From a virus (lineage: Duplodnaviria; Heunggongvirae; Uroviricota; Caudoviricetes), in IMG/VR virus record IMGVR_UViG_2721755658_000004: DNA of 12,765 nt. One strand, 5' to 3'. The notes below the pieces were generated by a model. It was not told where the DNA came from. It saw nothing but the letters and a program-made list of their open reading frames with translations, and did no database searches. A program made the position numbers and the translations under genes. Positions within the stretch are counted from its first letter, which is position 1. The number at the start of each line of letters is the position of its first letter. Shown one piece after another: positions 1-12,421 of the stretch.

Positions 1-378
1 ATGGACGAACAGTGGGGATACGTCGGGGCTAAATCGCGCCAGCGCTGGCTGTTTTACGCGTATGACAGGCTCCGGAAGACGGTTGTTGCGCACGTATTCG
101 GTGAACGCACTATGGCGACGCTGGGGCGTCTTATGAGCCTGCTGTCACCCTTTGACGTGGTGATATGGATGACGGATGGCTGGCCGCTGTATGAATCCCG
201 CCTGAAGGGAAAGCTGCACGTAATCAGCAAGCGATATACGCAGCGAATTGAGCGGCATAACCTGAATCTGAGGCAGCACCTGGCACGGCTGGGACGGAAG
301 TCGCTGTCGTTCTCAAAATCGGTGGAGCTGCATGACAAAGTCATCGGGCATTATCTGAACATAAAACACTATCAATAA
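1..378 (+). CDS. insB: IS1 transposase InsB, C-terminal 125 aa (window begins at an internal Met; N-terminal part lies upstream of the window)
   Basis: Translation [24 protein letters not shown]... is identical to residues 43-167 of the InsB ORF of the complete IS1 copy at 8859-9362. Confidence 0.8.
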
Positions 379-393
379 GTTGGAGTCATTACC
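1..393 (+). mobile_element. IS1, partial (3' 393 bp including the right terminal inverted repeat ...GGAGTCATTACC ending at 393); element continues upstream of the window
   Basis: Sequence 1-393 is the exact reverse complement counterpart of the insB-distal end of the complete IS1 at 8844-9236; terminal sequence ttggagtcattacc at 380-393. Confidence 0.85.
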
Positions 394-548
394 CAGAAAT
401 AGTTGCAATTCATAATTGATCATGGGTTGTCAGTTAAACTCGTGGCGATTTAAATAGACTAATTGGGAGTGCGTCCATTACTTATATCTTGTAATGTTAA
501 CTATCAGAAATGATACAAAGATAATATGTCTTTAAAGAAAAGGCTGAT

Positions 549-575
549 GGCGAAAAGTGGCCCGATGAGGGCCAC
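549..575 (-). terminator. Putative intrinsic terminator of the flxA-like gene (7-bp GC-rich stem GTGGCCC/GGGCCAC, 5-nt loop, then TTTTCGCC on the - strand)
   Basis: Hairpin 557-575 lies 15 nt downstream of the stop codon at 590-592; the U-tract is short (4 U). Confidence 0.4.
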
Positions 576-589
576 AATACGGCTGTCAC

Positions 590-922
590 TTAGACGTAAA
601 TATCAATGGTGCCAGCGGTATTTGTATCGTCTTTTTTCTCTTCTTTTTTATCAGGCTGAACTGTCGCGTCTTCATTCTTTTTCTCTGCCTGCTGCCTTAA
701 CAACTGCTCCAGTTGAGCCCTGAGGCTTTCAATTTGCTTCTGTACCAATGCAGCCATTTCTTTTTTCTGCTGTGTCGTCATCCCCTCTTCCGATGAGATT
801 TTCCCAAGCTTTTCAGTCAGCACCTGAATTTGTCTTGTGATTTTGGCTATTTCTGATGTTCCTTCCGGGGCGGAGTTGTTTGAAATAACGGTTGAGGTAT
901 TTCCCTGAATTGTGACAGACAT
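590..922 (-). CDS. flxA: FlxA-like protein, 110 aa, Lys/Glu-rich with predicted coiled coil
   Basis: ORF with strong RBS (AAAAGGAGAAATCT-ATG); translation MSVTIQGNTSTVISNN...TIDIYV matches my recollection of E. coli FlxA (Qin prophage, FliA-dependent); a sigma-28-like promoter sits immediately upstream. Identity is from memory, not a search. Confidence 0.6.
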   Translation of the reverse strand: MSVTIQGNTSTVISNNSAPEGTSEIAKITRQIQVLTEKLGKISSEEGMTTQQKKEMAALVQKQIESLRAQLEQLLRQQAEKKNEDATVQPDKKEEKKDDTNTAGTIDIYV

Positions 923-945
923 AGATTTCTCCTTTTAAAAAAGCA

Positions 946-972
946 CTATCGACATGCACAAAAAAATCTTTA
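946..972 (-). promoter_or_regulatory. Sigma-28 (FliA)-type promoter: -35 TAAAGATT, 11-nt spacer, -10 GTCGATAG (consensus TAAAGTTT-N11-GCCGATAA)
   Basis: Read on the - strand: TAAAGATT-tttttgtgcat-GTCGATAG, about 23 nt upstream of the flxA-like ATG; 7/8 and 6/8 matches to consensus with the correct spacer. Confidence 0.5.
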
Positions 973-1480
973 ATCGTATTTCTTGTGTCATTAATTGTTT
1001 GATGTTCAGATTGTTTTCCTCGCGGGCTGGCGCGCCTCAGAAAGTAAAGCTTGTTGACAGGGGTAAACGTTCGGCAATAATTTTCTGCCGCATGCGGGTG
1101 TTGCATAAAACGTGCTACGTTCCTTTATCGACAGGTCAGGTCACCGCTCACCCGCCGACGAGAAAGCAACACTGACATGCTAAAGCAAAAAATAGATGAA
1201 TAAGTTGAGTTGTGCATATGTAGCCTGACCGTCACAAAGTATATGGTGTCTGTACCAGTAAGATGATGGCCGGACTCTTTAAAAACGAGCTGACCTGCAC
1301 AATACAGGATGGACTTAGCAATGGCTGCTCCTGGCACATAGCAGACCAGAGACACTGGCGTAAAGCCATGGAGGATCGGTGGGAGGAGGTAAAAATCCTC
1401 TCATGCAAAAAATACGCAAAATCGATAACAGTTGGAAATAATTCAATACTCGCACTATCGGAAGTTCACCAGCCAGTCGT

Positions 1481-1525
1481 AGCACGTTCTTGCATATGAC
1501 GTGGCTACGGGTTTCGAGACCGACC
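1481..1525. repeat. Imperfect direct repeat A (about 45 bp), partner of 2502-2551; resembles the 3' end and 3' flank of the pin gene
   Basis: agcacg-ttcttgcata-tgacgtg-gctacgg-gtttc...ccgacc versus agcacg-atcttcttgcata-cgacgtg-ctacgg-tttc...ccgacc; hand alignment only (roughly 85-90% identity over the ~35-bp core, with one 3-nt indel). Confidence 0.5.
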
Positions 1526-1605
1526 CGATCATCAAACGAAACATAAAATTAGCTCACATTATGAGGAAAGGTATCTTTTTGCGCTATGTAAATTCAAAGG
1601 GTTAG

Positions 1606-2475
<870 letters not shown>

Positions 2476-2501
2476 GTCTTTAAGTGATAAGCATAAACCG
2501 C

Positions 2502-2551
2502 AGCACGATCTTCTTGCATACGACGTGCTACGGTTTCATTTATCTCCGACC
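2502..2551. repeat. Imperfect direct repeat B (about 50 bp), partner of 1481-1525; overlaps the last codons and 3' flank of pin and contains a dyad AGCACG...CGTGCT
   Basis: See repeat A; 2536-2551 encodes the pin C-terminus (..PVGDK*). Confidence 0.5.
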
Positions 2552-3090
2552 GGAAACTTCTTATACAGTGTCGATATACCAACATCATAGATGATCGCCA
2601 CCTTCTGGCGAGGAACGCCTGATGCAATTAATCGCCCGGCCTGCGCCCATTGTTCTGGTGTAAGTTTGGGACGACGTCCACCAATTCGTCCCTGTGCGCG
2701 AGCAGCTTCCAGTCCAGCTTTTGTTCGTTCAACAATCAGTTCTCGTTCCATTTCAGCCAAGGCCCCCATCACATGAAAGAAAAAACGCCCCATTGGTGTG
2801 CTGGTATCAATTGAATCCGTCAGACTACGAAAGTTGATGCCTCGTTCGCGCAACTCCTCCACCAACACGACAAGATGCCGCATACTACGCCCCAGTCGGT
2901 CCAGCTTCCAGACAACCAGAGTGTCACCTGCCGATAATGTCCTGAGCAGTTTTTTCAGTCCCGGCCTTTCGGACTTTGTGCCGCTTATCTTGTCTTCAAA
3001 AATCAGCTCGCATCCTGCACAGTTCAGCGCATTACGTTGTAGATCTGTGTTCTGGTCATTTGTTGATACGCGTACATAGCCAATAAGCAT
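2536..3090 (-). CDS. pin: Serine-recombinase DNA invertase, Pin/Gin/Cin/Hin family, 184 aa
   Basis: Translation from the ATG at 3090 begins MLIGYVRVSTNDQNTDLQ (catalytic Ser in the RVST motif) and ends in an HTH region (GRPPKL...IYDVGISTLYKK); closely resembles my recollection of e14 PinE. The upstream in-frame ATG at 3126 was rejected because family members start at MLIGYVRVS. Confidence 0.85.
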   Translation of the reverse strand: MLIGYVRVSTNDQNTDLQRNALNCAGCELIFEDKISGTKSERPGLKKLLRTLSAGDTLVVWKLDRLGRSMRHLVVLVEELRERGINFRSLTDSIDTSTPMGRFFFHVMGALAEMERELIVERTKAGLEAARAQGRIGGRRPKLTPEQWAQAGRLIASGVPRQKVAIIYDVGISTLYKKFPVGDK

Positions 3091-3116
3091 GGTAGATCCC
3101 CCTGACAAAAGCAGGA

Positions 3117-3509
3117 ATGATGCCATTTGCTCGTTATTTCTGCATTTTCATAAACGTTGGTTTGGGAGAAGCGGCTAAAAGGAATGTAGGGACAGGGGCG
3201 AATCAGATACCTGATATGGGTAGCTTCACGCTTTCTGTTTCAGGTACTGGATATCAAAAATTACCATCAGGTTTTATTCTTCAGTGGGGCTCAATCGGCG
3301 CACCAGGCATTGCACAGGATGTAGTAACCCATTTCCCGATTGCATTTCCAAACAGATGTCTGCGTGTTTTGGTCTCACAAGACTACACACCAGATAGCGG
3401 GGCTGTTGGTTATATTGCCTGTGCAGGTTTTAGTCCCGACCCGGTTAAATTTATATCCAGAGCCAGTACTCCTGGCCTCGGCGCTTCATTTTTAGCGTTA
3501 GGCTGTTAA
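3117..3509 (+). CDS. Tail-fibre protein C-terminal variable segment (fragment; N-terminal constant part would be supplied across the crossover site), 130 aa as an ORF
   Basis: Divergent from pin, contains the crossover site, and is followed by a tail-fibre assembly gene; [13 protein letters not shown]-type motif typical of fibre C-termini. Probably not an autonomous gene. Confidence 0.5.
3145..3170. other. gix/pix-like 26-bp invertase crossover site (TTTTCATAAACG-TT-GGTTTGGGAGAA; half-sites TTTTCATAAACG and TTCTCCCAAACC around a central TT/AA)
   Basis: Imperfect dyad 55 bp upstream of the pin start and inside the 5' end of the tail-fibre variable ORF, as for gix in the Mu S gene; fits the TTxTCxxAAACC half-site pattern of the Hin/Gin/Cin/Pin family. 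Confidence 0.55.
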
Positions 3510-3530
3510 TTTAGCTATATGGAGTGAAAA

Positions 3531-3971
3531 ATGAATTACATATATTCCGCGACTACAAACTCTTTCTATCCGCTGGAGATGAAAGAGGATTACACTCAAG
3601 CTGACTCATGGCCAGATGATGCTGTTGAAGTTGATGAGCAAGTGTATATTAAGTTTTCCGGATTACCGCCGAAAGGAAAAATCCGTATCGCTGGAGAAAA
3701 TGGTTTTCCTGCATGGTCTGAAATTCCACCACCAACACATGAGGAACAGATTGCTGCAGCCGAACTGGAAAAGCAGCAACTGATTAATCAGGCCAACGAT
3801 TATATGAACAGTAAACAATGGCCTGGTAAAGCGGCTATTGGCCGGCTGAAAGGTGAGGAACTGGCGCAATATAATTTGTGGCTGGATTATCTGGACGCAC
3901 TGGAACTGGTCGATACTTCCGGTGCGCCAGATATTGAATGGCCTACGCCTCCGGCAGTTCAGGCCAGATGA
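3531..3971 (+). CDS. Tail-fibre assembly protein (Tfa/U family), 146 aa
   Basis: RBS GGAGTG 6 nt before the ATG; C-terminal region (LWLDYLDALELVDTSGAPDIEWPTPP) characteristic of Tfa chaperones; position immediately after the fibre variable segment. Confidence 0.7.
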   Translation: MNYIYSATTNSFYPLEMKEDYTQADSWPDDAVEVDEQVYIKFSGLPPKGKIRIAGENGFPAWSEIPPPTHEEQIAAAELEKQQLINQANDYMNSKQWPGKAAIGRLKGEELAQYNLWLDYLDALELVDTSGAPDIEWPTPPAVQAR

Positions 3972-4548
3972 CATCCGGCGCGGTGCTGGTATCTGTTGCC
4001 GTCACCGCGTCAATGTAATCCAGCGCAGCGTTAAGTCGGGCGGTTTCTGCCTGCGTCAGATTCCGTCCGGCCTGCAATTTCAGCTGAATCAGACTAATGG
4101 AAGCCATTGCAGTATCAATCAGTGACTGACGCTGTGCTTCTGCCGCGCCTACTGCGGCGCTATGCTGTGCCACAGTATCTGTTACCCATTTCTCACCATC
4201 CCATTCATCGTATGGCGTTAACGGGGCGATAGTGGTTGTATTTTCAGGATAATCACCCGGAGCTGTGATTTCTTTCGATTCTCCTGTTTCGGTGCTATAG
4301 ATGATTTCACCGCGATGGTCTGACACATATTCCCATGAGTTTAAATCTGCCGAACGGCAGATTGCATAACCAGCCTTATGTGTGCCAGGAGCATCTAAAC
4401 AGGAATATGCAGGGATACCGACACCCACAGCAAGATATTCAGTTGATGCAGAAATATACTCCCGTGTCTCACTGTCATAGTTATAAACGGTAATCTCTCC
4501 TGCCTTTGTGGCAATAAATTTACTATTCAAGATGGCGTTATACATCAT
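3943..4548 (-). CDS. Tail-fibre assembly protein (Tfa/U' family), 201 aa, convergent with and overlapping the previous tfa by 29 bp
   Basis: Starts MMYNAILNSKF with RBS GTGAGGG; shares the C-terminal Tfa signature (LDYIDAVTATDTSTAPDVIWPELP); the convergent pair matches the U/U' arrangement of invertible G/P segments. Confidence 0.7.
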   Translation of the reverse strand: MMYNAILNSKFIATKAGEITVYNYDSETREYISASTEYLAVGVGIPAYSCLDAPGTHKAGYAICRSADLNSWEYVSDHRGEIIYSTETGESKEITAPGDYPENTTTIAPLTPYDEWDGEKWVTDTVAQHSAAVGAAEAQRQSLIDTAMASISLIQLKLQAGRNLTQAETARLNAALDYIDAVTATDTSTAPDVIWPELPEA

Positions 4549-4776
4549 GCAGCCCTCACAATGTAATTAAATGAAATATTACGTGGCCGTGTCTCTGCTG
4601 CACCGACAATACTGGGGTACCCAGAAATAGTTGCAATTCATAATTGATCATGGGTTGTCAGTTAAACTCGTGGCGATTTAAATAGACTAATTGGGAGTGC
4701 GTCCATTACTTATATCTTGTAATGTTAACTATCAGAAATGATACAAAGATAATATGTCTTTAAAGAAAAGGCTGAT

Positions 4777-4803
4777 GGCGAAAAGTGGCCCGATGAGGGC
4801 CAC
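4777..4803 (-). terminator. Putative intrinsic terminator of the flxA-like gene (copy 2)
   Basis: Duplicate of 549-575 at +4228. Confidence 0.4.
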
Positions 4804-4817
4804 AATACGGCTGTCAC

Positions 4818-5150
4818 TTAGACGTAAATATCAATGGTGCCAGCGGTATTTGTATCGTCTTTTTTCTCTTCTTTTTTATCAGGCTGAACTGTCGCGTCTT
4901 CATTCTTTTTCTCTGCCTGCTGCCTTAACAACTGCTCCAGTTGAGCCCTGAGGCTTTCAATTTGCTTCTGTACCAATGCAGCCATTTCTTTTTTCTGCTG
5001 TGTCGTCATCCCCTCTTCCGATGAGATTTTCCCAAGCTTTTCAGTCAGCACCTGAATTTGTCTTGTGATTTTGGCTATTTCTGATGTTCCTTCCGGGGCG
5101 GAGTTGTTTGAAATAACGGTTGAGGTATTTCCCTGAATTGTGACAGACAT
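4818..5150 (-). CDS. flxA: FlxA-like protein, 110 aa (copy 2)
   Basis: Translation identical to 590-922. Confidence 0.6.
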   Translation of the reverse strand: MSVTIQGNTSTVISNNSAPEGTSEIAKITRQIQVLTEKLGKISSEEGMTTQQKKEMAALVQKQIESLRAQLEQLLRQQAEKKNEDATVQPDKKEEKKDDTNTAGTIDIYV

Positions 5151-5173
5151 AGATTTCTCCTTTTAAAAAAGCA

Positions 5174-5200
5174 CTATCGACATGCACAAAAAAATCTTTA
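5174..5200 (-). promoter_or_regulatory. Sigma-28 (FliA)-type promoter (copy 2)
   Basis: Duplicate of 946-972 at +4228. Confidence 0.5.
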
Positions 5201-5708
5201 ATCGTATTTCTTGTGTCATTAATTGTTTGATGTTCAGATTGTTTTCCTCGCGGGCTGGCGCGCCTCAGAAAGTAAAGCTTGTTGACAGGGGTAAACGTTC
5301 GGCAATAATTTTCTGCCGCATGCGGGTGTTGCATAAAACGTGCTACGTTCCTTTATCGACAGGTCAGGTCACCGCTCACCCGCCGACGAGAAAGCAACAC
5401 TGACATGCTAAAGCAAAAAATAGATGAATAAGTTGAGTTGTGCATATGTAGCCTGACCGTCACAAAGTATATGGTGTCTGTACCAGTAAGATGATGGCCG
5501 GACTCTTTAAAAACGAGCTGACCTGCACAATACAGGATGGACTTAGCAATGGCTGCTCCTGGCACATAGCAGACCAGAGACACTGGCGTAAAGCCATGGA
5601 GGATCGGTGGGAGGAGGTAAAAATCCTCTCATGCAAAAAATACGCAAAATCGATAACAGTTGGAAATAATTCAATACTCGCACTATCGGAAGTTCACCAG
5701 CCAGTCGT

Positions 5709-5753
5709 AGCACGTTCTTGCATATGACGTGGCTACGGGTTTCGAGACCGACC
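5709..5753. repeat. Imperfect direct repeat A (copy 2)
   Basis: Duplicate of 1481-1525 at +4228. Confidence 0.5.
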
Positions 5754-5833
5754 CGATCATCAAACGAAACATAAAATTAGCTCACATTATGAGGAAAGGT
5801 ATCTTTTTGCGCTATGTAAATTCAAAGGGTTAG

Positions 5834-6703
<870 letters not shown>

Positions 6704-6729
6704 GTCTTTAAGTGATAAGCATAAACCGC

Positions 6730-6779
6730 AGCACGATCTTCTTGCATACGACGTGCTACGGTTTCATTTATCTCCGACC
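6730..6779. repeat. Imperfect direct repeat B (copy 2)
   Basis: Duplicate of 2502-2551 at +4228. Confidence 0.5.
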
Positions 6780-7318
6780 GGAAACTTCTTATACAGTGTC
6801 GATATACCAACATCATAGATGATCGCCACCTTCTGGCGAGGAACGCCTGATGCAATTAATCGCCCGGCCTGCGCCCATTGTTCTGGTGTAAGTTTGGGAC
6901 GACGTCCACCAATTCGTCCCTGTGCGCGAGCAGCTTCCAGTCCAGCTTTTGTTCGTTCAACAATCAGTTCTCGTTCCATTTCAGCCAAGGCCCCCATCAC
7001 ATGAAAGAAAAAACGCCCCATTGGTGTGCTGGTATCAATTGAATCCGTCAGACTACGAAAGTTGATGCCTCGTTCGCGCAACTCCTCCACCAACACGACA
7101 AGATGCCGCATACTACGCCCCAGTCGGTCCAGCTTCCAGACAACCAGAGTGTCACCTGCCGATAATGTCCTGAGCAGTTTTTTCAGTCCCGGCCTTTCGG
7201 ACTTTGTGCCGCTTATCTTGTCTTCAAAAATCAGCTCGCATCCTGCACAGTTCAGCGCATTACGTTGTAGATCTGTGTTCTGGTCATTTGTTGATACGCG
7301 TACATAGCCAATAAGCAT
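6764..7318 (-). CDS. pin: Serine-recombinase DNA invertase, Pin/Gin family (copy 2)
   Basis: Translation identical to 2536-3090. Confidence 0.85.
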   Translation of the reverse strand: MLIGYVRVSTNDQNTDLQRNALNCAGCELIFEDKISGTKSERPGLKKLLRTLSAGDTLVVWKLDRLGRSMRHLVVLVEELRERGINFRSLTDSIDTSTPMGRFFFHVMGALAEMERELIVERTKAGLEAARAQGRIGGRRPKLTPEQWAQAGRLIASGVPRQKVAIIYDVGISTLYKKFPVGDK

Positions 7319-7344
7319 GGTAGATCCCCCTGACAAAAGCAGGA

Positions 7345-7737
7345 ATGATGCCATTTGCTCGTTATTTCTGCATTTTCATAAACGTTGGTTTGGGAGAAGC
7401 GGCTAAAAGGAATGTAGGGACAGGGGCGAATCAGATACCTGATATGGGTAGCTTCACGCTTTCTGTTTCAGGTACTGGATATCAAAAATTACCATCAGGT
7501 TTTATTCTTCAGTGGGGCTCAATCGGCGCACCAGGCATTGCACAGGATGTAGTAACCCATTTCCCGATTGCATTTCCAAACAGATGTCTGCGTGTTTTGG
7601 TCTCACAAGACTACACACCAGATAGCGGGGCTGTTGGTTATATTGCCTGTGCAGGTTTTAGTCCCGACCCGGTTAAATTTATATCCAGAGCCAGTACTCC
7701 TGGCCTCGGCGCTTCATTTTTAGCGTTAGGCTGTTAA
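7345..7737 (+). CDS. Tail-fibre protein C-terminal variable segment (fragment; copy 2)
   Basis: Translation identical to 3117-3509. Confidence 0.5.
7373..7398. other. gix/pix-like crossover site (copy 2)
   Basis: Duplicate of 3145-3170; sequence re-read at 7373-7398. Confidence 0.55.
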
Positions 7738-7758
7738 TTTAGCTATATGGAGTGAAAA

Positions 7759-8199
7759 ATGAATTACATATATTCCGCGACTACAAACTCTTTCTATCCG
7801 CTGGAGATGAAAGAGGATTACACTCAAGCTGACTCATGGCCAGATGATGCTGTTGAAGTTGATGAGCAAGTGTATATTAAGTTTTCCGGATTACCGCCGA
7901 AAGGAAAAATCCGTATCGCTGGAGAAAATGGTTTTCCTGCATGGTCTGAAATTCCACCACCAACACATGAGGAACAGATTGCTGCAGCCGAACTGGAAAA
8001 GCAGCAACTGATTAATCAGGCCAACGATTATATGAACAGTAAACAATGGCCTGGTAAAGCGGCTATTGGCCGGCTGAAAGGTGAGGAACTGGCGCAATAT
8101 AATTTGTGGCTGGATTATCTGGACGCACTGGAACTGGTCGATACTTCCGGTGCGCCAGATATTGAATGGCCTACGCCTCCGGCAGTTCAGGCCAGATGA
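7759..8199 (+). CDS. Tail-fibre assembly protein (copy 2)
   Basis: Translation identical to 3531-3971. Confidence 0.7.
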   Translation: MNYIYSATTNSFYPLEMKEDYTQADSWPDDAVEVDEQVYIKFSGLPPKGKIRIAGENGFPAWSEIPPPTHEEQIAAAELEKQQLINQANDYMNSKQWPGKAAIGRLKGEELAQYNLWLDYLDALELVDTSGAPDIEWPTPPAVQAR

Positions 8200-8776
8200 C
8201 ATCCGGCGCGGTGCTGGTATCTGTTGCCGTCACCGCGTCAATGTAATCCAGCGCAGCGTTAAGTCGGGCGGTTTCTGCCTGCGTCAGATTCCGTCCGGCC
8301 TGCAATTTCAGCTGAATCAGACTAATGGAAGCCATTGCAGTATCAATCAGTGACTGACGCTGTGCTTCTGCCGCGCCTACTGCGGCGCTATGCTGTGCCA
8401 CAGTATCTGTTACCCATTTCTCACCATCCCATTCATCGTATGGCGTTAACGGGGCGATAGTGGTTGTATTTTCAGGATAATCACCCGGAGCTGTGATTTC
8501 TTTCGATTCTCCTGTTTCGGTGCTATAGATGATTTCACCGCGATGGTCTGACACATATTCCCATGAGTTTAAATCTGCCGAACGGCAGATTGCATAACCA
8601 GCCTTATGTGTGCCAGGAGCATCTAAACAGGAATATGCAGGGATACCGACACCCACAGCAAGATATTCAGTTGATGCAGAAATATACTCCCGTGTCTCAC
8701 TGTCATAGTTATAAACGGTAATCTCTCCTGCCTTTGTGGCAATAAATTTACTATTCAAGATGGCGTTATACATCAT
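8171..8776 (-). CDS. Tail-fibre assembly protein (copy 2)
   Basis: Translation identical to 3943-4548. Confidence 0.7.
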   Translation of the reverse strand: MMYNAILNSKFIATKAGEITVYNYDSETREYISASTEYLAVGVGIPAYSCLDAPGTHKAGYAICRSADLNSWEYVSDHRGEIIYSTETGESKEITAPGDYPENTTTIAPLTPYDEWDGEKWVTDTVAQHSAAVGAAEAQRQSLIDTAMASISLIQLKLQAGRNLTQAETARLNAALDYIDAVTATDTSTAPDVIWPELPEA

Positions 8777-8843
8777 GCAGCCCTCACAATGTAATTAAAT
8801 GAAATATTACGTGGCCGTGTCTCTGCTGCACCGACAATACTGG
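8773..8843 (-). pseudogene. 3' remnant (about 23 codons) of a tail-fibre gene, truncated by IS1; its TGA stop overlaps the tfa ATG (ATGA)
   Basis: The - strand frame ...PSIVGAAETRPRNISFNYIVRAA* runs open up to the IS1 boundary at 8844; the equivalent remnant in copy 1 (4545-4617) abuts the duplication junction. Confidence 0.3.
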
Positions 8844-8858
8844 GGTAATGACTCCAAC

Positions 8859-9362
8859 TTATTGATAGTGTTTTATGTTCAGATAATGCCCGATGACTTT
8901 GTCATGCAGCTCCACCGATTTTGAGAACGACAGCGACTTCCGTCCCAGCCGTGCCAGGTGCTGCCTCAGATTCAGGTTATGCCGCTCAATTCGCTGCGTA
9001 TATCGCTTGCTGATTACGTGCAGCTTTCCCTTCAGGCGGGATTCATACAGCGGCCAGCCATCCGTCATCCATATCACCACGTCAAAGGGTGACAGCAGGC
9101 TCATAAGACGCCCCAGCGTCGCCATAGTGCGTTCACCGAATACGTGCGCAACAACCGTCTTCCGGAGCCTGTCATACGCGTAAAACAGCCAGCGCTGGCG
9201 CGATTTAGCCCCGACGTATCCCCACTGTTCGTCCATTTCCGCGCAGACGATGACGTCACTGCCCGGCTGTATGCGCGAGGTTACCGACTGCGGCCTGAGT
9301 TTTTTAAGTGACGTAAAATCGTGTTGAGGCCAACGCCCATAATGCGGGCTGTTGCCCGGCAT
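8859..9362 (-). CDS. insB: IS1 transposase InsB (ORF as in track; expressed as InsAB' fusion by -1 frameshift)
   Basis: Translation [49 protein letters not shown]... is canonical IS1 InsB. Confidence 0.85.
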
Positions 9363-9556
9363 CCAACGCCATTCATGGCCATATCAATGATTTTCTGGTG
9401 CGTACCGGGTTGAGAAGCGGTGTAAGTGAACTGCAGTTGCCATGTTTTACGGCAGTGAGAGCAGAGATAGCGCTGATGTCCGGCGGTGCTTTTGCCGTTA
9501 CGCACCACCCCGTCAGTAGCTGAACAGGAGGGACAGCTGATAGAAACAGAAGCCAC
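9281..9556 (-). CDS. insA: IS1 protein InsA (transposition inhibitor / N-terminal part of transposase), 91 aa
   Basis: Translation [43 protein letters not shown]... is canonical IS1 InsA with zinc-finger cysteines. Confidence 0.9.
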
Positions 9557-9693
9557 TGGAGCACCTCAAAAACACCATCATACACTAAATCAGTAAGTTG
9601 GCAGCATCACCTTAATTTTCATCAATCCATTTAACTATCGTTTAATTGTTGTCACATAGGATTCTGCCGTTTTTAACAATGCAGGATAATAAG

Positions 9694-10018: not shown

Positions 10019-10480
10019 CTATCTGCACTGCTCATTAATATACTTCTGGGTTCCTTCCAGTTGTTTTTGCATAGTGATCAGCCTCTCTCTGAGGGTGAAA
10101 TAATCCCGTTCAGCGGTGTCTGCCAGTCGGGGGGAGGCTGCATTATCCACGCCGGAGGCGGTGGTGGCTTCACGCACTGACTGACAGACTGCTTTGATGT
10201 GCAACCGACGACGACCAGCGGCAACATCATCACGCAGAGCATCATTTTCAGCTTTCGCATCAGCTAACTCCTTCGTGTATTTTGCATCGAGCGCAGCAAC
10301 ATCACGCTGACGCATCTGCATGTCAGTAATTGTCGAGTTCGCCAGCTTCAGTTCTCTGGCATTTTTGTCGCGCTGGGCTTTGTAGGTAATGGCGTTATCG
10401 CGGTAATGATTAACAGCCCATGACAAGCAAACGATGATGCAGATAACCAGAGCGGAAATAATCGCGGTTACTCTGCTCAT
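10019..10480 (-). CDS. Rz: Rz i-spanin (inner-membrane spanin subunit), 153 aa
   Basis: Translation [44 protein letters not shown]... is near-identical to lambda Rz from memory; 4-bp overlap with R. Confidence 0.9.
10078..10260 (-). CDS. Rz1: Rz1 o-spanin lipoprotein, 60 aa, embedded in the +1 frame of Rz
   Basis: Translation [60 protein letters not shown] has the lipobox VVVGC and proline-rich region and is near-identical to lambda Rz1. Confidence 0.85.
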
Positions 10481-10953
10481 ACCTCAATCTCTCTGACCGT
10501 TCCGCCTGCTTCTTTGAATTTTGCAATCAGGCTGTCAGCCTTATGCTCGAACTGACCGTAACCAGCGCCCGGCAACGAAGCCCAGATATTGCTGCAACGG
10601 TCGATAGCCTGACGAATATCACCACGATCAATCATCGGTAAAGCGCCACGTTCTTTAATCTGCTGCAATGCCACAGCGTCCTGGCTTTTGGGGGAGAAGT
10701 CTTTCAAACCAAGCTGTTTACGGTAAGCATCCCACCAACGTGAAAGAAGCTGGTAACGTCCGGCGGCTGTTGATTTGAGTTTGGGGTTTAGCGTGACAAG
10801 TTTGCGAGGGTGATCGGAGTAATCAGTAAATAGCTCTCCGCCTACAATGACGTCATAACCATGATTTCTGGTTTTCTGCCGTCCGTTATCCGTTCCTTCT
10901 GACCATGCAACCATATCCAGGAAAGCTTTACGCTGGGAATTTAGTACCTGCAT
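10477..10953 (-). CDS. R: Endolysin R (lambda-type lytic transglycosylase), 158 aa
   Basis: Translation ...[48 protein letters not shown]... is near-identical to lambda R from memory, with a divergent N-terminus. Confidence 0.9.
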
Positions 10954-10956
10954 AAA

Positions 10957-11388
10957 TTACTCCTTCGAGCTACCAAACTTGTTACCGATTACTCTCATTG
11001 CAGCCCCACGAATAGCATCGACACCGATCAGCCCCACCCCACCACCAATGGCAACAGAAAGCGATTTAGGCCATCCGACATACTCAAGCGCGGATGCAAA
11101 GGTCAACGTCAGAGCGCCACATAGCAAAATCTCGAGCGTTTTTCGCTTCCAGCCACCACCACCGCCAAAATAGGCGATGCGCAAACCAGCCATAACAATC
11201 GACATAATCACTGCGCCCAGCGGCGTATCTCCACGCCACCAGCTCTGAAACAACTCCAGCCAGTCCGGCCAGGTATTTGGGTTATGAGGCATTTCGTCAT
11301 CTCTCACCTCGCGATATTTGCGGGTGCTGTGTTGGAAATAAAAAGGCCACGCAACGTGGCCACCAGAATTATTTCCCCACCAGTTCAC
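10957..11388 (-). CDS. Candidate holin / lysis membrane protein (three predicted TM segments), 143 aa from GTG 11388; alternative internal ATG start at 11292 (111 aa)
   Basis: Sits immediately upstream of R with a 3-nt gap; hydrophobic segments LGAVIMSIVMAGLRIAYF, TLEILLCGALTLTFASALEY, SLSVAIGGGVGLIGVDAI; RBS AAGAGG before the GTG. Not recognisably lambda S; call rests on position and topology. Confidence 0.45.
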   Translation of the reverse strand: MNWWGNNSGGHVAWPFYFQHSTRKYREVRDDEMPHNPNTWPDWLELFQSWWRGDTPLGAVIMSIVMAGLRIAYFGGGGGWKRKTLEILLCGALTLTFASALEYVGWPKSLSVAIGGGVGLIGVDAIRGAAMRVIGNKFGSSKE

Positions 11389-12421
11389 TTACCTCTTTCA
11401 CCGTCTGATTAAACCGCTCTGACTCAAGTTCAACACCTAACGCCCGACGCCCCAGCGCCATTGCCGCTTTTATTGTGGAACCGGATCCCATAAAGAAATC
11501 AGCAACCAGATCGCCTTGTCGACTACTGGCACTGATTATTTGCCGGAGCATATCCGCGGGCTTCTCACACGGATGTTTACCCGGGTAGAACTGAACGGGT
11601 TTATGCGTCCAGACGTCGGTATAAGGCACGGAAACTGATACGGAGAAATAGCGCCGGAGAGTTTTAAACTCATCCAGCAATTCAGAATATTTGCGATTCA
11701 GTGAATCATAAGATGCCACCAGCTGGTGGTGTGGTTGTTCCAGTTGTTGTTCCTGAAATTTCTCTGCCGCTATACGGGAAAACAGTGCCTGCAACTTCCG
11801 GTAGTCAGCCTCATTCGGCAACTGCCACTGACTGGCACCAAACCAGTGGGAAACCATATTTTTCTTACCAGTGGCTTCGGCAATCTGTTTTGCCGTTATA
11901 CCCAGTTCGGCACGAGCATCCCTGAAATACGAAATCAGCGGTGCCATTATGTGCTGTTTGAGTTGACTTTCTTTTGCCGCATAGCCGTCACTTTTGCCGC
12001 GATATGGTCCCTGGTAATGTTCAGCAAACAGAACGCGTTCTGTTGCGGGAAAATATGCGCGCAGACTTTCTTTATTACACCCGTTCCATCGTCCGGACGG
12101 CTTCGCCCAGATAATATGGTTAAGAACGTTGAAACGTTCACGCATCATGATCTCGATATCAGATGCGAGGCGATGTCCACAGAACAGGTAAAGGCTTCCG
12201 GCAGGTTTCAGCACCCGCCAGAACTGAGCCAGACAGTGGTCCAGCCACTTCAGGTAATCTTCGTCCCCTTTCCACTGATTGTCCCAACCGTTGGGTTTCA
12301 CCTTGAAGTACGGCGGATCGGTAACAATCAGGTCAATGGAATCATCAGGCAGGGACTGAATAAAATGCAGGCAATCAGCGTTGATTAAATCAGCACTGTT
12401 TATTTTCACAGTATTTTTCAT
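11369..12421 (-). CDS. DNA methyltransferase, beta-class amino-MTase (N6-adenine or N4-cytosine), 350 aa; no restriction endonuclease partner in the window
   Basis: Motif IV DPPY near the N-terminus (IVTDPPYF) and the AdoMet-binding motif I FFMGSGST near the C-terminus; this IV-before-I order marks the beta group. Its 3' end overlaps the holin start by 20 nt. Confidence 0.75.
   Translation of the reverse strand: MKNTVKINSADLINADCLHFIQSLPDDSIDLIVTDPPYFKVKPNGWDNQWKGDEDYLKWLDHCLAQFWRVLKPAGSLYLFCGHRLASDIEIMMRERFNVLNHIIWAKPSGRWNGCNKESLRAYFPATERVLFAEHYQGPYRGKSDGYAAKESQLKQHIMAPLISYFRDARAELGITAKQIAEATGKKNMVSHWFGASQWQLPNEADYRKLQALFSRIAAEKFQEQQLEQPHHQLVASYDSLNRKYSELLDEFKTLRRYFSVSVSVPYTDVWTHKPVQFYPGKHPCEKPADMLRQIISASSRQGDLVADFFMGSGSTIKAAMALGRRALGVELESERFNQTVKEVSELVGK

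Follow-up and report, generated by a model that had tools for sequence, protein, structure and literature searches.

Among the closest known systems is the P segment of the e14 prophage in Escherichia coli K-12, which has the crossover sites pixL and pixR and the gene order pin, pix, variable cassette, tfa and convergent tfaE, with the defence gene mcrA adjoining pin. The Mu G segment with its invertase Gin and the P1 C segment with Cin are built from a constant part, a site, a variable part and a chaperone gene, followed by a convergent chaperone gene and variable part, a second site and the invertase gene. Invertase genes are also found in decayed prophages without an invertible segment of their own, as with PinQ and PinR in Qin and Rac of K-12; both enzymes are only 38% identical to PinE of e14, and for PinQ, trans inversion of the P segment of e14 has been reported (PMC12529663). 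Inversion of e14 P can yield the chimera StfE2, which is reported to block adsorption of phage T2, and recent work has ascribed a role in phage defence to orphan Pin enzymes as well as to chimeric fibre fragments of the pin-proximal type.

Here, we analyzed a window of 12,765 nucleotides, the whole stretch of tailed-phage DNA recorded as IMGVR_UViG_2721755658_000004, in which an earlier note had recognized an orphaned DNA inversion system. The region is very probably an IS1-truncated remnant of an e14-type Pin inversion system, with an intact pin gene, one pixR site and no inversion in cis. It belongs to a known kind of system, of the sort that prophage decay ordinarily produces, and no new mechanism is required. 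The repeat unit measures 4,222 bp (394-4615) and is duplicated in tandem at an offset of 4,228 bp; positions 390-4619 equal positions 4618-8847 with 0 mismatches, such that the copies agree at every base of 4,230 bp. Each unit carries flxA (590-922, minus strand; second copy 4818-5150), which encodes 110 aa, matches Pfam FlxA (E=1.2e-14) and is annotated as flxA in relatives. An Rfam scan of the whole window gave no match, and a promoter and terminator scan of 2400-4700 yielded hits at chance level only.

The pin gene (2536-3090, minus strand; second copy 6764-7318) has an intact reading frame in both copies and encodes a serine DNA invertase of 184 aa, with Pfam scores of 1.5e-51 for Resolvase and 4.8e-13 for HTH_7. 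A longer ORF of 196 aa, reaching to 3126, adds 12 codons upstream of the ATG at 3090. The protein is identical to K-12 e14 PinE at 178 of 184 residues (97%), including all of residues 1-128 and the wild-type His at the equivalent of Hin H107, and to Mu Gin at 144 of 193. Over residues 1-181, it also matched Gin structure 3UJ3 (E=2.7e-94). The resolvase-type catalytic domain, the active-site Ser9 and the C-terminal helix-turn-helix together identify a small serine recombinase. A resolvase of the Tn3 or gamma-delta kind was rejected, since Gin scored 317 bits versus 112 bits for gamma-delta resolvase, and so was a res-type system, since each unit holds one dimer-binding 26-bp site and the consensus scan found no accessory half-site-like matches nearby. 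From pix into the pin 5' region, 341 of 350 nt are identical to e14, indicating that the e14 content of this region has been retained. Systems of this family carry a recombinational enhancer in cis, with two Fis sites, in the 5' part of the invertase gene; a scan with the degenerate Fis motif (G-N13-C) picked out no convincing conserved pair at about the distance where the enhancer would lie. Pin is probably still produced and active.

The crossover site, TTTTCATAAACGTTGGTTTGGGAGAA, was located by the window scan at 3145-3170 on the plus strand (core dinucleotide 3157-3158), starting 55 nt from the pin ATG, and again at 7373-7398 in the second copy. Its reverse complement agrees with the published pixR, TTCTCCCAAACC AA CGTTTATGAAAA, at all 26 positions (PMC3241671), which makes it the pin-proximal type and bears out the Pin/pix system named in the earlier note. 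Two 12-bp half-sites surround the 2-bp core; the dyad is imperfect, with half-site symmetry at 8 of 12 positions. Against the palindromic consensus of Hin, Gin, Cin and Pin, the site has 1 mismatch in 18 specified positions. None of the window shuffles yielded a match to the 26-bp site, and the next-best consensus matches in the window carry 6 mismatches, no better than chance (an average of 3.7 such places is expected in each shuffle). Scans with both the site and the consensus found no pix site in inverted orientation within the 12.7-kb window. Rather than two inverted sites on one molecule, the window has two plus-strand sites, in direct orientation and 4,228 bp apart as previously described, which are the product of the duplication. 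Each unit has one site and the duplication provides nothing but direct repeats, so that with the sites in these 12.7 kb Pin is unable to flip the segment it belongs to; the prediction that the segment is locked in cis holds at this scale, even though an inverted pix might lie farther along the same replicon.

Next to pin, the pix site occupies codons 10-18 of a plus-strand ORF of 130 aa (3117-3509; second copy 7345-7737), which consists of a short leader and a variable cassette assigned to Pfam Gp53-like_C over residues 48-130. The leader shares 71% identity with the N-terminus of e14 StfE; from pix onward, the ORF shows 77% identity with residues 96-213 of a fused 213-aa fibre at a related locus (L016). 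This is the cassette without a link to the constant part. The cassette is followed by its chaperone gene, a tfa of 146 aa (3531-3971, plus strand; second copy 7759-8199; Pfam Caudo_TAP, E=1.2e-37), and by a tfaE-type tfa of 200 aa on the minus strand (3943-4545; second copy 8171-8773; Caudo_TAP, E=4.2e-31), the chaperone gene of a Collar-type cassette, whose counterpart in ETEC H10407 is annotated as tfaE. The two tfa genes are convergent and overlap by 29 bp, so the arrangement noticed earlier, with the site in the 5' end of a variable fibre ORF and convergent overlapping tfa genes behind it, is confirmed. The Collar-type fibre gene itself survives as a minus-strand 3' remnant (4545-4615; second copy 8773-8843), identified by tblastn as 100% identical to residues 254-275 of the 275-aa ETEC fibre (4548-4613 and 8776-8841). 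These 22 codons plus stop correspond to the roughly 23 codons counted in the earlier note. The fibre constant part (residues 1-95) has no match anywhere in the window. Thus, in place of a constant part with two alternating cassettes, the locus lacks a constant part and keeps just 22 codons of one cassette, together with both tfa genes. For annotation, this means that the 130-aa 'gp53-like' ORF and the 22-codon remnant should be treated as cassette fragments, not as genes for working fibres.

Intact relatives show what is missing. The E. coli genome CP088890.1 is colinear with the whole unit (394-4615) at 99.93% identity and continues beyond it into a complete fibre gene, YmfQ and baseplate genes, with an exact pixL and the constant 5' part of the fibre gene about 455 bp past the IS1 boundary. 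ETEC H10407 has its partner site, TTCTCCCAAACCAAGGTTTTCGAGAG, also an exact pixL, about 455 bp past the end of homology with the window, within the 275-aa fibre gene; it is inverted relative to the pixR-type site and about 1.9 kb from it. The proposal that the partner site and constant region are missing and that the break falls exactly at the IS1 boundary is thus supported by two intact loci that retain both. Among 33 related loci, every intact one (about 30) has two inverted sites, and comparison of these genomes reveals both orientations: at least 19 join the constant part to the Collar-type cassette and at least 7 join it to the Gp53-like cassette. Moreover, the outer half-sites are fixed while the inner halves are swapped at the central TT/AA. 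The presence of both isomers and the exchange of inner halves at TT/AA indicate that the family truly inverts. One related locus, in E. coli LR-33, is an independent orphan with pin and pix only, so that such decay recurs. It does not represent the same deletion, since the IS1 there is flanked by a 9-bp target duplication and points the opposite way.

Two IS1 copies bracket the duplicated units. The left one (1-393, plus strand) is cut by the window start and was recognized from a 394-nt perfect inverted match to 8843-9236; its IRR terminus, ...GTCATTACC, points toward the unit, and an ORF for the C-terminal part of InsB spans 1-378. Its junction with flxA recurs by itself in E. coli EH10-18-47, in a different prophage context. 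The right one (8844-9611, minus strand), delimited by the inverted match and its flanks, is a complete IS1 of 768 bp, inverted versus the left copy. A simple IS1 insertion leaves a 9-bp (sometimes 8-bp) direct target-site duplication around the element. The flanks of the right IS1, CAATACTGG versus TTAATTTTC, contain no 9-bp duplication and its two sides derive from far-apart parts of the prophage, so a simple insertion was rejected; the absence of a target duplication fits the product of a deletion or recombination. The element stands where the remainder of the fibre gene would be, along with every head and tail gene as far as bor, and in related prophages the structural genes lie between bor/Rz and the fibre.

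This anatomy makes one course of decay very probable. The locus lies at the right end of a prophage of the e14/SfV-like kind that had a Mu-type tail module, and its Pin-controlled P segment would originally have comprised the constant fibre 5' part, pixL, the Collar-type part, tfaE, the convergent tfa, the Gp53-like part, pixR and pin. An IS1-associated deletion, starting some 70 bp upstream of the stop codon of the fibre gene, then very probably removed pixL, the constant part and all head and tail genes up to bor, and froze the remainder in the orientation with the Gp53-like cassette beside pin. The later 4,228-bp tandem duplication would have added direct pix repeats only, leaving the switch dead in cis.

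The junctions of the duplication were read directly. Between the two units lies GGTACC (4616-4621), which equals the terminal nucleotides only of two inward-facing IS1 IRR ends (GGTA... and ...TACC). A source in native sequence was rejected: in K-12 and CP088890.1, the corresponding flanks read ...GTGACTA|CAGAAATAG and ...ACTGG|TACTCAACC, without these bases. Neither the tandem junction nor the right IS1 junction was found in any E. coli complete genome, and the junction 23-mer, GCTGCACCGACAATACTGGGGTA, had no hit in species-representative genomes, in IMG/VR or in JGI metagenomes. Two short junction-spanning ORFs gave no match in look-ups, and look-ups with four window proteins returned other strains only. 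The lack of any further instance of the junction is one reason to ask whether the duplication is an assembly artefact and the real locus a single unit between two inverted IS1 copies; the identity of the copies over 4,230 bp points the same way, as do the inverted IS1 repeats at both ends, which are hard for assemblers. Nevertheless, identity is expected of recent duplications, and GGTACC is a specific new sequence made of IS1 terminal bases rather than read-through or a collapsed repeat. We consider an artefact rather unlikely. A genuine duplication presumably arose, and would collapse, by IS1-end-related and homologous recombination, not through pix.

The earlier note had further suggested that Pin could recombine the direct pix sites and excise a 4,228-bp circle, so that pix and Pin would act as a copy-number switch of the unit. 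The arrangement invites the idea, with two identical direct sites 4,228 bp apart and an intact pin with each. Low-level Gin- and Hin-dependent deletions were reportedly seen in vivo in the early 1980s, which would favor it. In Hin mutants that no longer need the enhancer, deletion between direct hix sites is as fast as inversion (PMC4817059). However, efficient deletion between direct sites is a trait of such mutants, e.g. Hin-H107Y (PMC3798978; PMC4817059), whereas Pin matches PinE throughout residues 1-128 and keeps His at the H107 position. The wild-type Fis/enhancer invertasome gives intramolecular inversion as its exclusive outcome (PMC3798978). Sites aligned antiparallel present an asymmetric core (TT/AA here) that cannot be religated after one 180-degree exchange, and the two exchanges then needed restore the parental arrangement (PMC4817059). 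Furthermore, the novel junction lies at the IS1 ends and not at pix, indicating that pix did not create the duplication, and 4.2 kb of perfect homology permits RecA-dependent loss in any case; duplications of 2.6-3.3 kb in P. aeruginosa are lost at about 1e-4 per generation (PMC12607827). These data made us regard a pix-mediated switch as extremely unlikely, and this part of the earlier note was not upheld. The PCR it had proposed, for a 4.2-kb circle or a single-copy allele, cannot discriminate between the two routes: since the copies are identical, a crossover at any point yields one and the same 4,228-bp circle and single-copy allele, whether RecA or Pin is at work.

The caveat that Pin might act on sites elsewhere fared better, since PinQ acting on e14 provides a published precedent (PMC12529663), and Pin could likewise have P-type segments at other places in the genome as its targets in trans. 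A related proposal is that the orphan Pin has been kept for trans inversion of the P-type fibre segments of other prophages; it is compatible with an IS1-truncated remnant and concerns why pin stays intact. Both copies of pin are intact, and the inner half-site plus core, TTGGTTTGGGAGAAG, shares 15 of 16 nt with the e14 inversion repeat used by PinQ and PinE (PMC12529663). E. coli prophages very commonly have this type of cassette, with at least two in some genomes. In addition, one related locus (L014) has its P segment flanked by two pin-side sites, together with 205 bp of the pin 5' end copied in inverted orientation, a structure that suggests exchanges between different P loci. On the other hand, the unit is 99.93% identical to its intact relative, and recent truncation may suffice to explain the intact frame; an intact pin could reflect either recent truncation or ongoing selection for a role in trans. 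We therefore regard retention for trans inversion as possible rather than probable.

Each unit also carries, in the same duplication as pin, a GIY-YIG nuclease gene (1702-2475, plus strand; second copy 5930-6703) with a full-length PADLOC match to the anti-phage defence protein PD-T4-3 (E=2.2e-140) and a Pfam LEM-3_GIY-YIG match. With this gene and a StfE2-like ORF in one unit duplicated at IS1 ends, the fossil switch might conceivably have turned into a constitutive, dosage-amplifiable anti-phage island, which we judge very unlikely. If it were true, the GGTACC junction would be a record of an unusual IS1-end-joining route to tandem duplication. The presence of PD-T4-3 in the duplicated unit may make the locus worth the attention of researchers studying defence islands.

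Taken together, the remnant with its intact pin and single pixR can be placed among the systems described at the outset. It resembles the e14 P segment in gene order and in having a defence gene beside pin (PD-T4-3 here, mcrA in e14). Unlike e14, it has lost pixL and the constant part, which is the 5' end of stfP; most of one cassette is gone as well, with IS1 at the break. Its Gp53-like cassette is only 27% identical to that of StfP, and the unit stands in tandem duplicate. The order of elements in Mu G and P1 C is likewise recognizable, their sites share the 26-bp consensus with pix, and Pin is 75% identical to Mu Gin over its full length, but the core is AA/TT here versus GA/TC in gix and only the invertase-proximal site is left. 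With StfE2, the ORF at 3117-3509 shares its size of about 130 aa, a pin-proximal leader and a Gp53-like_C domain joined to it at the pix-encoded GLGE motif, while the domain itself is only 27% identical. As in the cases of PinQ and PinR, an invertase gene persists in a decayed prophage without an invertible segment of its own; in contrast to those enzymes, the one here is a PinE orthologue adjoined by one cognate site and one-and-a-bit cassettes. The orphan-invertase state is thus already known from PinQ and PinR in K-12 and recurs in E. coli strains such as LR-33. Taken alone, the locus carries little weight; it represents a clean, well-delimited case of IS1 eroding a prophage and leaving behind an orphan invertase with a single target.

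The window begins with an IS1 cut by its start (1-393), followed by a 4,222-bp unit (394-4615), the six bases GGTACC (4616-4621), a second copy of the unit (4622-8843) and a complete IS1 in inverted orientation (8844-9611). The DNA beyond the right IS1 belongs to a lambdoid-type late region, of which the lysis end is present, with bor, Rz, lysozyme, holin, and DNA methyltransferase genes. The stretches 390-4619 and 4618-8847 are identical, with zero mismatches. Each unit contains flxA, pin (184 amino acids) and, beside it, a GIY-YIG nuclease gene (1702-2475 and 5930-6703) matching the PADLOC PD-T4-3 model over its full length (E=2.2e-140). These are accompanied by a pin-proximal ORF of 130 amino acids (3117-3509 and 7345-7737), with a fibre tip domain (Gp53-like_C) at residues 48-130, two convergent genes overlapping by 29 bp (tfa and a tfaE-type gene), and the last 22 codons plus stop of a Collar-type fibre gene. 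The constant N-terminal 95 fibre residues had no match in the whole window. A 24-nt stretch (TGCAATGTTCATTAATATACGTCT) directly upstream of the PD-T4-3 gene (1652-1675 and 5880-5903) recurs with 88% identity at the 3' end of Rz (10024-10047), with no longer homology around it, and may be what is left of an old module boundary.

The 26-bp crossover site pix (TTTTCATAAACGTTGGTTTGGGAGAA) is located in codons 10-18 of the pin-proximal ORF and occurs twice on the + strand, at 3145-3170 and at 7373-7398; shuffled windows yielded no match to it. Only 1 of the 18 specified positions of the palindromic Hin/Gin/Cin/Pin site consensus is mismatched in pix, versus 6 mismatches at the runner-up positions in the window, a level at which shuffles yield 3.7 hits. 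The reverse complement of pix, TTCTCCCAAACC AA CGTTTATGAAAA, is identical in every letter to e14 pixR as tabulated in PMC3241671. The dyad is imperfect, being symmetric at 8 of 12 half-site positions, and the TT/AA core is asymmetric. The coordinates of the site, its 55-nt gap to pin and the 4,228-bp spacing reported in the earlier note are all correct.

Pin contains Resolvase and HTH_7 domains; its residues 1-181 align with the Mu Gin crystal structures (E=2.7e-94), and Ser9 is present. It is identical to K-12 PinE at 178 of 184 residues, the first 128 being unchanged, and to Gin at 144 of 193. At the position equivalent to the Hin residue whose change from His to Tyr gives enhancer independence (PMC4817059), Pin has His. 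Since the 350 nt that lead from pix into pin match e14 at 341 positions, the cis-acting enhancer of the e14 system, if any, has very probably been kept. A degenerate scan for Fis motifs yielded no persuasive conserved pair where the enhancer would be expected.

Intact relatives reveal what the window lacks. ETEC H10407 has the same genes in the same order, and its second site (TTCTCCCAAACCAAGGTTTTCGAGAG), which is the published pixL, lies inverted about 1.9 kb away within a 275-amino-acid fibre gene; its homology with the window ends about 455 bp before pixL, exactly at the IS1 start in the window. E. coli CP088890.1 matches 394-4615 from end to end (99.93%), continuing to the right into a complete fibre gene, ymfQ, and Mu-type baseplate genes and to the left into native sequence upstream of flxA. 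All intact copies among the 33 related loci examined carry a pair of sites in inverted orientation. Across these loci the outer half-sites do not vary (TTTTCATAAACG beside pin and CTCTCGAAAACC beside the constant part), and the inner half-sites are GGTTTGGGAGAA on both sides. Both orientations are represented: at least 19 loci have the constant part fused to the Collar-type cassette, and at least 7 have it fused to the Gp53-like one. Such a pattern marks real exchange at the central TT/AA. Mu-tail, P2-like, and other myovirus prophages have the cassette pair in common. In several E. coli strains (matches H18-H25), 99.8-99.9% identity covers only 394-3171, i.e., to the end of pix. Because one related locus (L024) carries the remainder of the segment in the opposite orientation, this break at pix is an inversion isomer rather than divergence.

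On this evidence, the window preserves the end of an e14-type P segment that lies next to pin, in the orientation with the Collar-type cassette joined to the constant part and the Gp53-like cassette silent beside pin; an IS1-associated deletion cut the segment afterwards. No 9-bp target duplication surrounds the complete IS1 at 8844-9611 (flanks CAATACTGG versus TTAATTTTC), and this element links the last 22 fibre codons to the lysis cassette on its bor side. In related prophages the entire head and tail gene set lies between the fibre 3' end and the bor region; because IS1 joins the two, this prophage lacks all its head, tail, and baseplate genes, a set that spans some 20 kb or more in relatives. 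Each unit has a single site and so offers nothing that could be inverted; the switch is therefore locked in cis, which bears out the earlier note's reading of a segment locked in one orientation after loss of the partner site and the constant part at the IS1 boundary. The same system has decayed independently at two other loci: that of E. coli LR-33 (10294-10974) has pin, pix, and about 50 bp of cassette before unrelated DNA, and its mirror image, L023, has only the site beside the constant part (11540-11565), without pin. The IS1-flxA junction at 334-454 recurs identically at 12001-12121 of a locus in one E. coli complete genome (L003, strain EH10-18-47), in a different context, a Rac-site prophage followed by ydfV-relBE-hokD; either the IS1 insertion beside flxA is old and moved with the module, or the site is a hot spot.

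Both breakpoints of the duplication fall within 4 nt of two inward-facing IS1 IRR termini (390-394 and 8844-8847), which suggests IS1-end-related joining rather than unequal homologous exchange. GGTACC corresponds to the start of the right IS1 (GGTA...) and the end of the left one (...TACC) with a TA overlap, or to three nucleotides from each; it happens to be a KpnI site. Native sequence was ruled out as its source, the flanks being ...GTGACTA|CAGAAATAG and ...ACTGG|TACTCAACC, and random illegitimate recombination was rejected since the breakpoints are too precise. We infer a joining of breaks at the IS1 ends through 2-nt microhomology. This joining might have involved sister chromosomes, or the unit might first have formed a circle and then re-inserted by homologous recombination. 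No published account of such a footprint for IS1 was found in the literature searched. An assembly artefact is a less probable rival account of the duplication.

The earlier note also envisaged that Pin could resolve the two directly repeated pix sites of the duplicated unit. We consider this unlikely. Wild-type invertases assemble a Fis/enhancer invertasome that confines the outcome to intramolecular inversion (PMC3798978). When sites align antiparallel or core nucleotides are mismatched, ligation takes two exchanges, which restore the parental arrangement and leave knots; it is enhancer-independent mutants that delete between direct sites as fast as they invert (PMC4817059). Pin here has a wild-type catalytic domain, and the TT/AA core of pix is asymmetric. 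The duplication has its new junction away from pix, and therefore pix did not make the duplication. Furthermore, the copies share 4.2 kb of perfect homology, and duplications of 2.6-3.3 kb in P. aeruginosa were lost at about 1e-4 per generation (PMC12607827); by our own comparison, a disfavoured Pin reaction is unlikely to exceed this baseline. The suggested PCR for a 4.2-kb circle or single-copy allele cannot separate the routes, because any crossover between identical copies yields the same products.

Action in trans, which the earlier note had allowed for, has a precedent: the Qin prophage invertase PinQ, which has no associated segment, is reported to act on the e14 P segment, inverting it at the repeats TTGGTTTGGGAGAAGG (Kirigo et al., PMC12529663), and this repeat matches the inner half of the window pix at 15 of 16 positions. 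In L014, a related E. coli locus (CM129873.1), pin-side (pixR-type) sites stand at both ends of the P segment (10029-10054 and 11915-11940), and after the second of them 205 bp of the pin 5' end are repeated in inverted orientation (11914-12118). The same genome carries a second, normal locus (L013), and the arrangement may reflect past recombination between two distinct P loci.

The frozen ORF at 3117-3509 has the same build as StfE2, with a leader 71% identical to the StfE N-terminus and a Gp53-like domain, whereas the Gp53-like domain of StfP is only 27% identical to that of the window. StfE2, the chimeric protein formed after e14 P inversion, is reported to block T2 adsorption (PMC12529663). 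The arrangement of the pin-proximal ORF is fixed in the window by loss of the partner site. In relatives the slot beside pin is occupied by other genes of defence type, namely mcrA in e14 and genes for products with HNH, GmrSD, AAA_15/AAA_21, HEPN, or FRG domains. PD-T4-3 is a single-gene anti-phage system, and the unit duplication doubles its gene copy number. There is a small probability that the StfE2-like ORF beside PD-T4-3 in the duplicated unit constitutes a constitutive, amplifiable defence island.

The enzyme and its site belong to the Hin/Gin/Cin/Pin-type family. When the defining features of such systems were sought in the window, neither paired inverted sites nor a constant part with two complete cassettes was found; orphan Pin genes, namely PinQ and PinR, are already known. 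The locus is a remnant of an e14-type system and not a new kind: it works like e14 Pin/pix and descends from it, and Mu Gin/gix and P1 Cin/cix are siblings of the e14 system.
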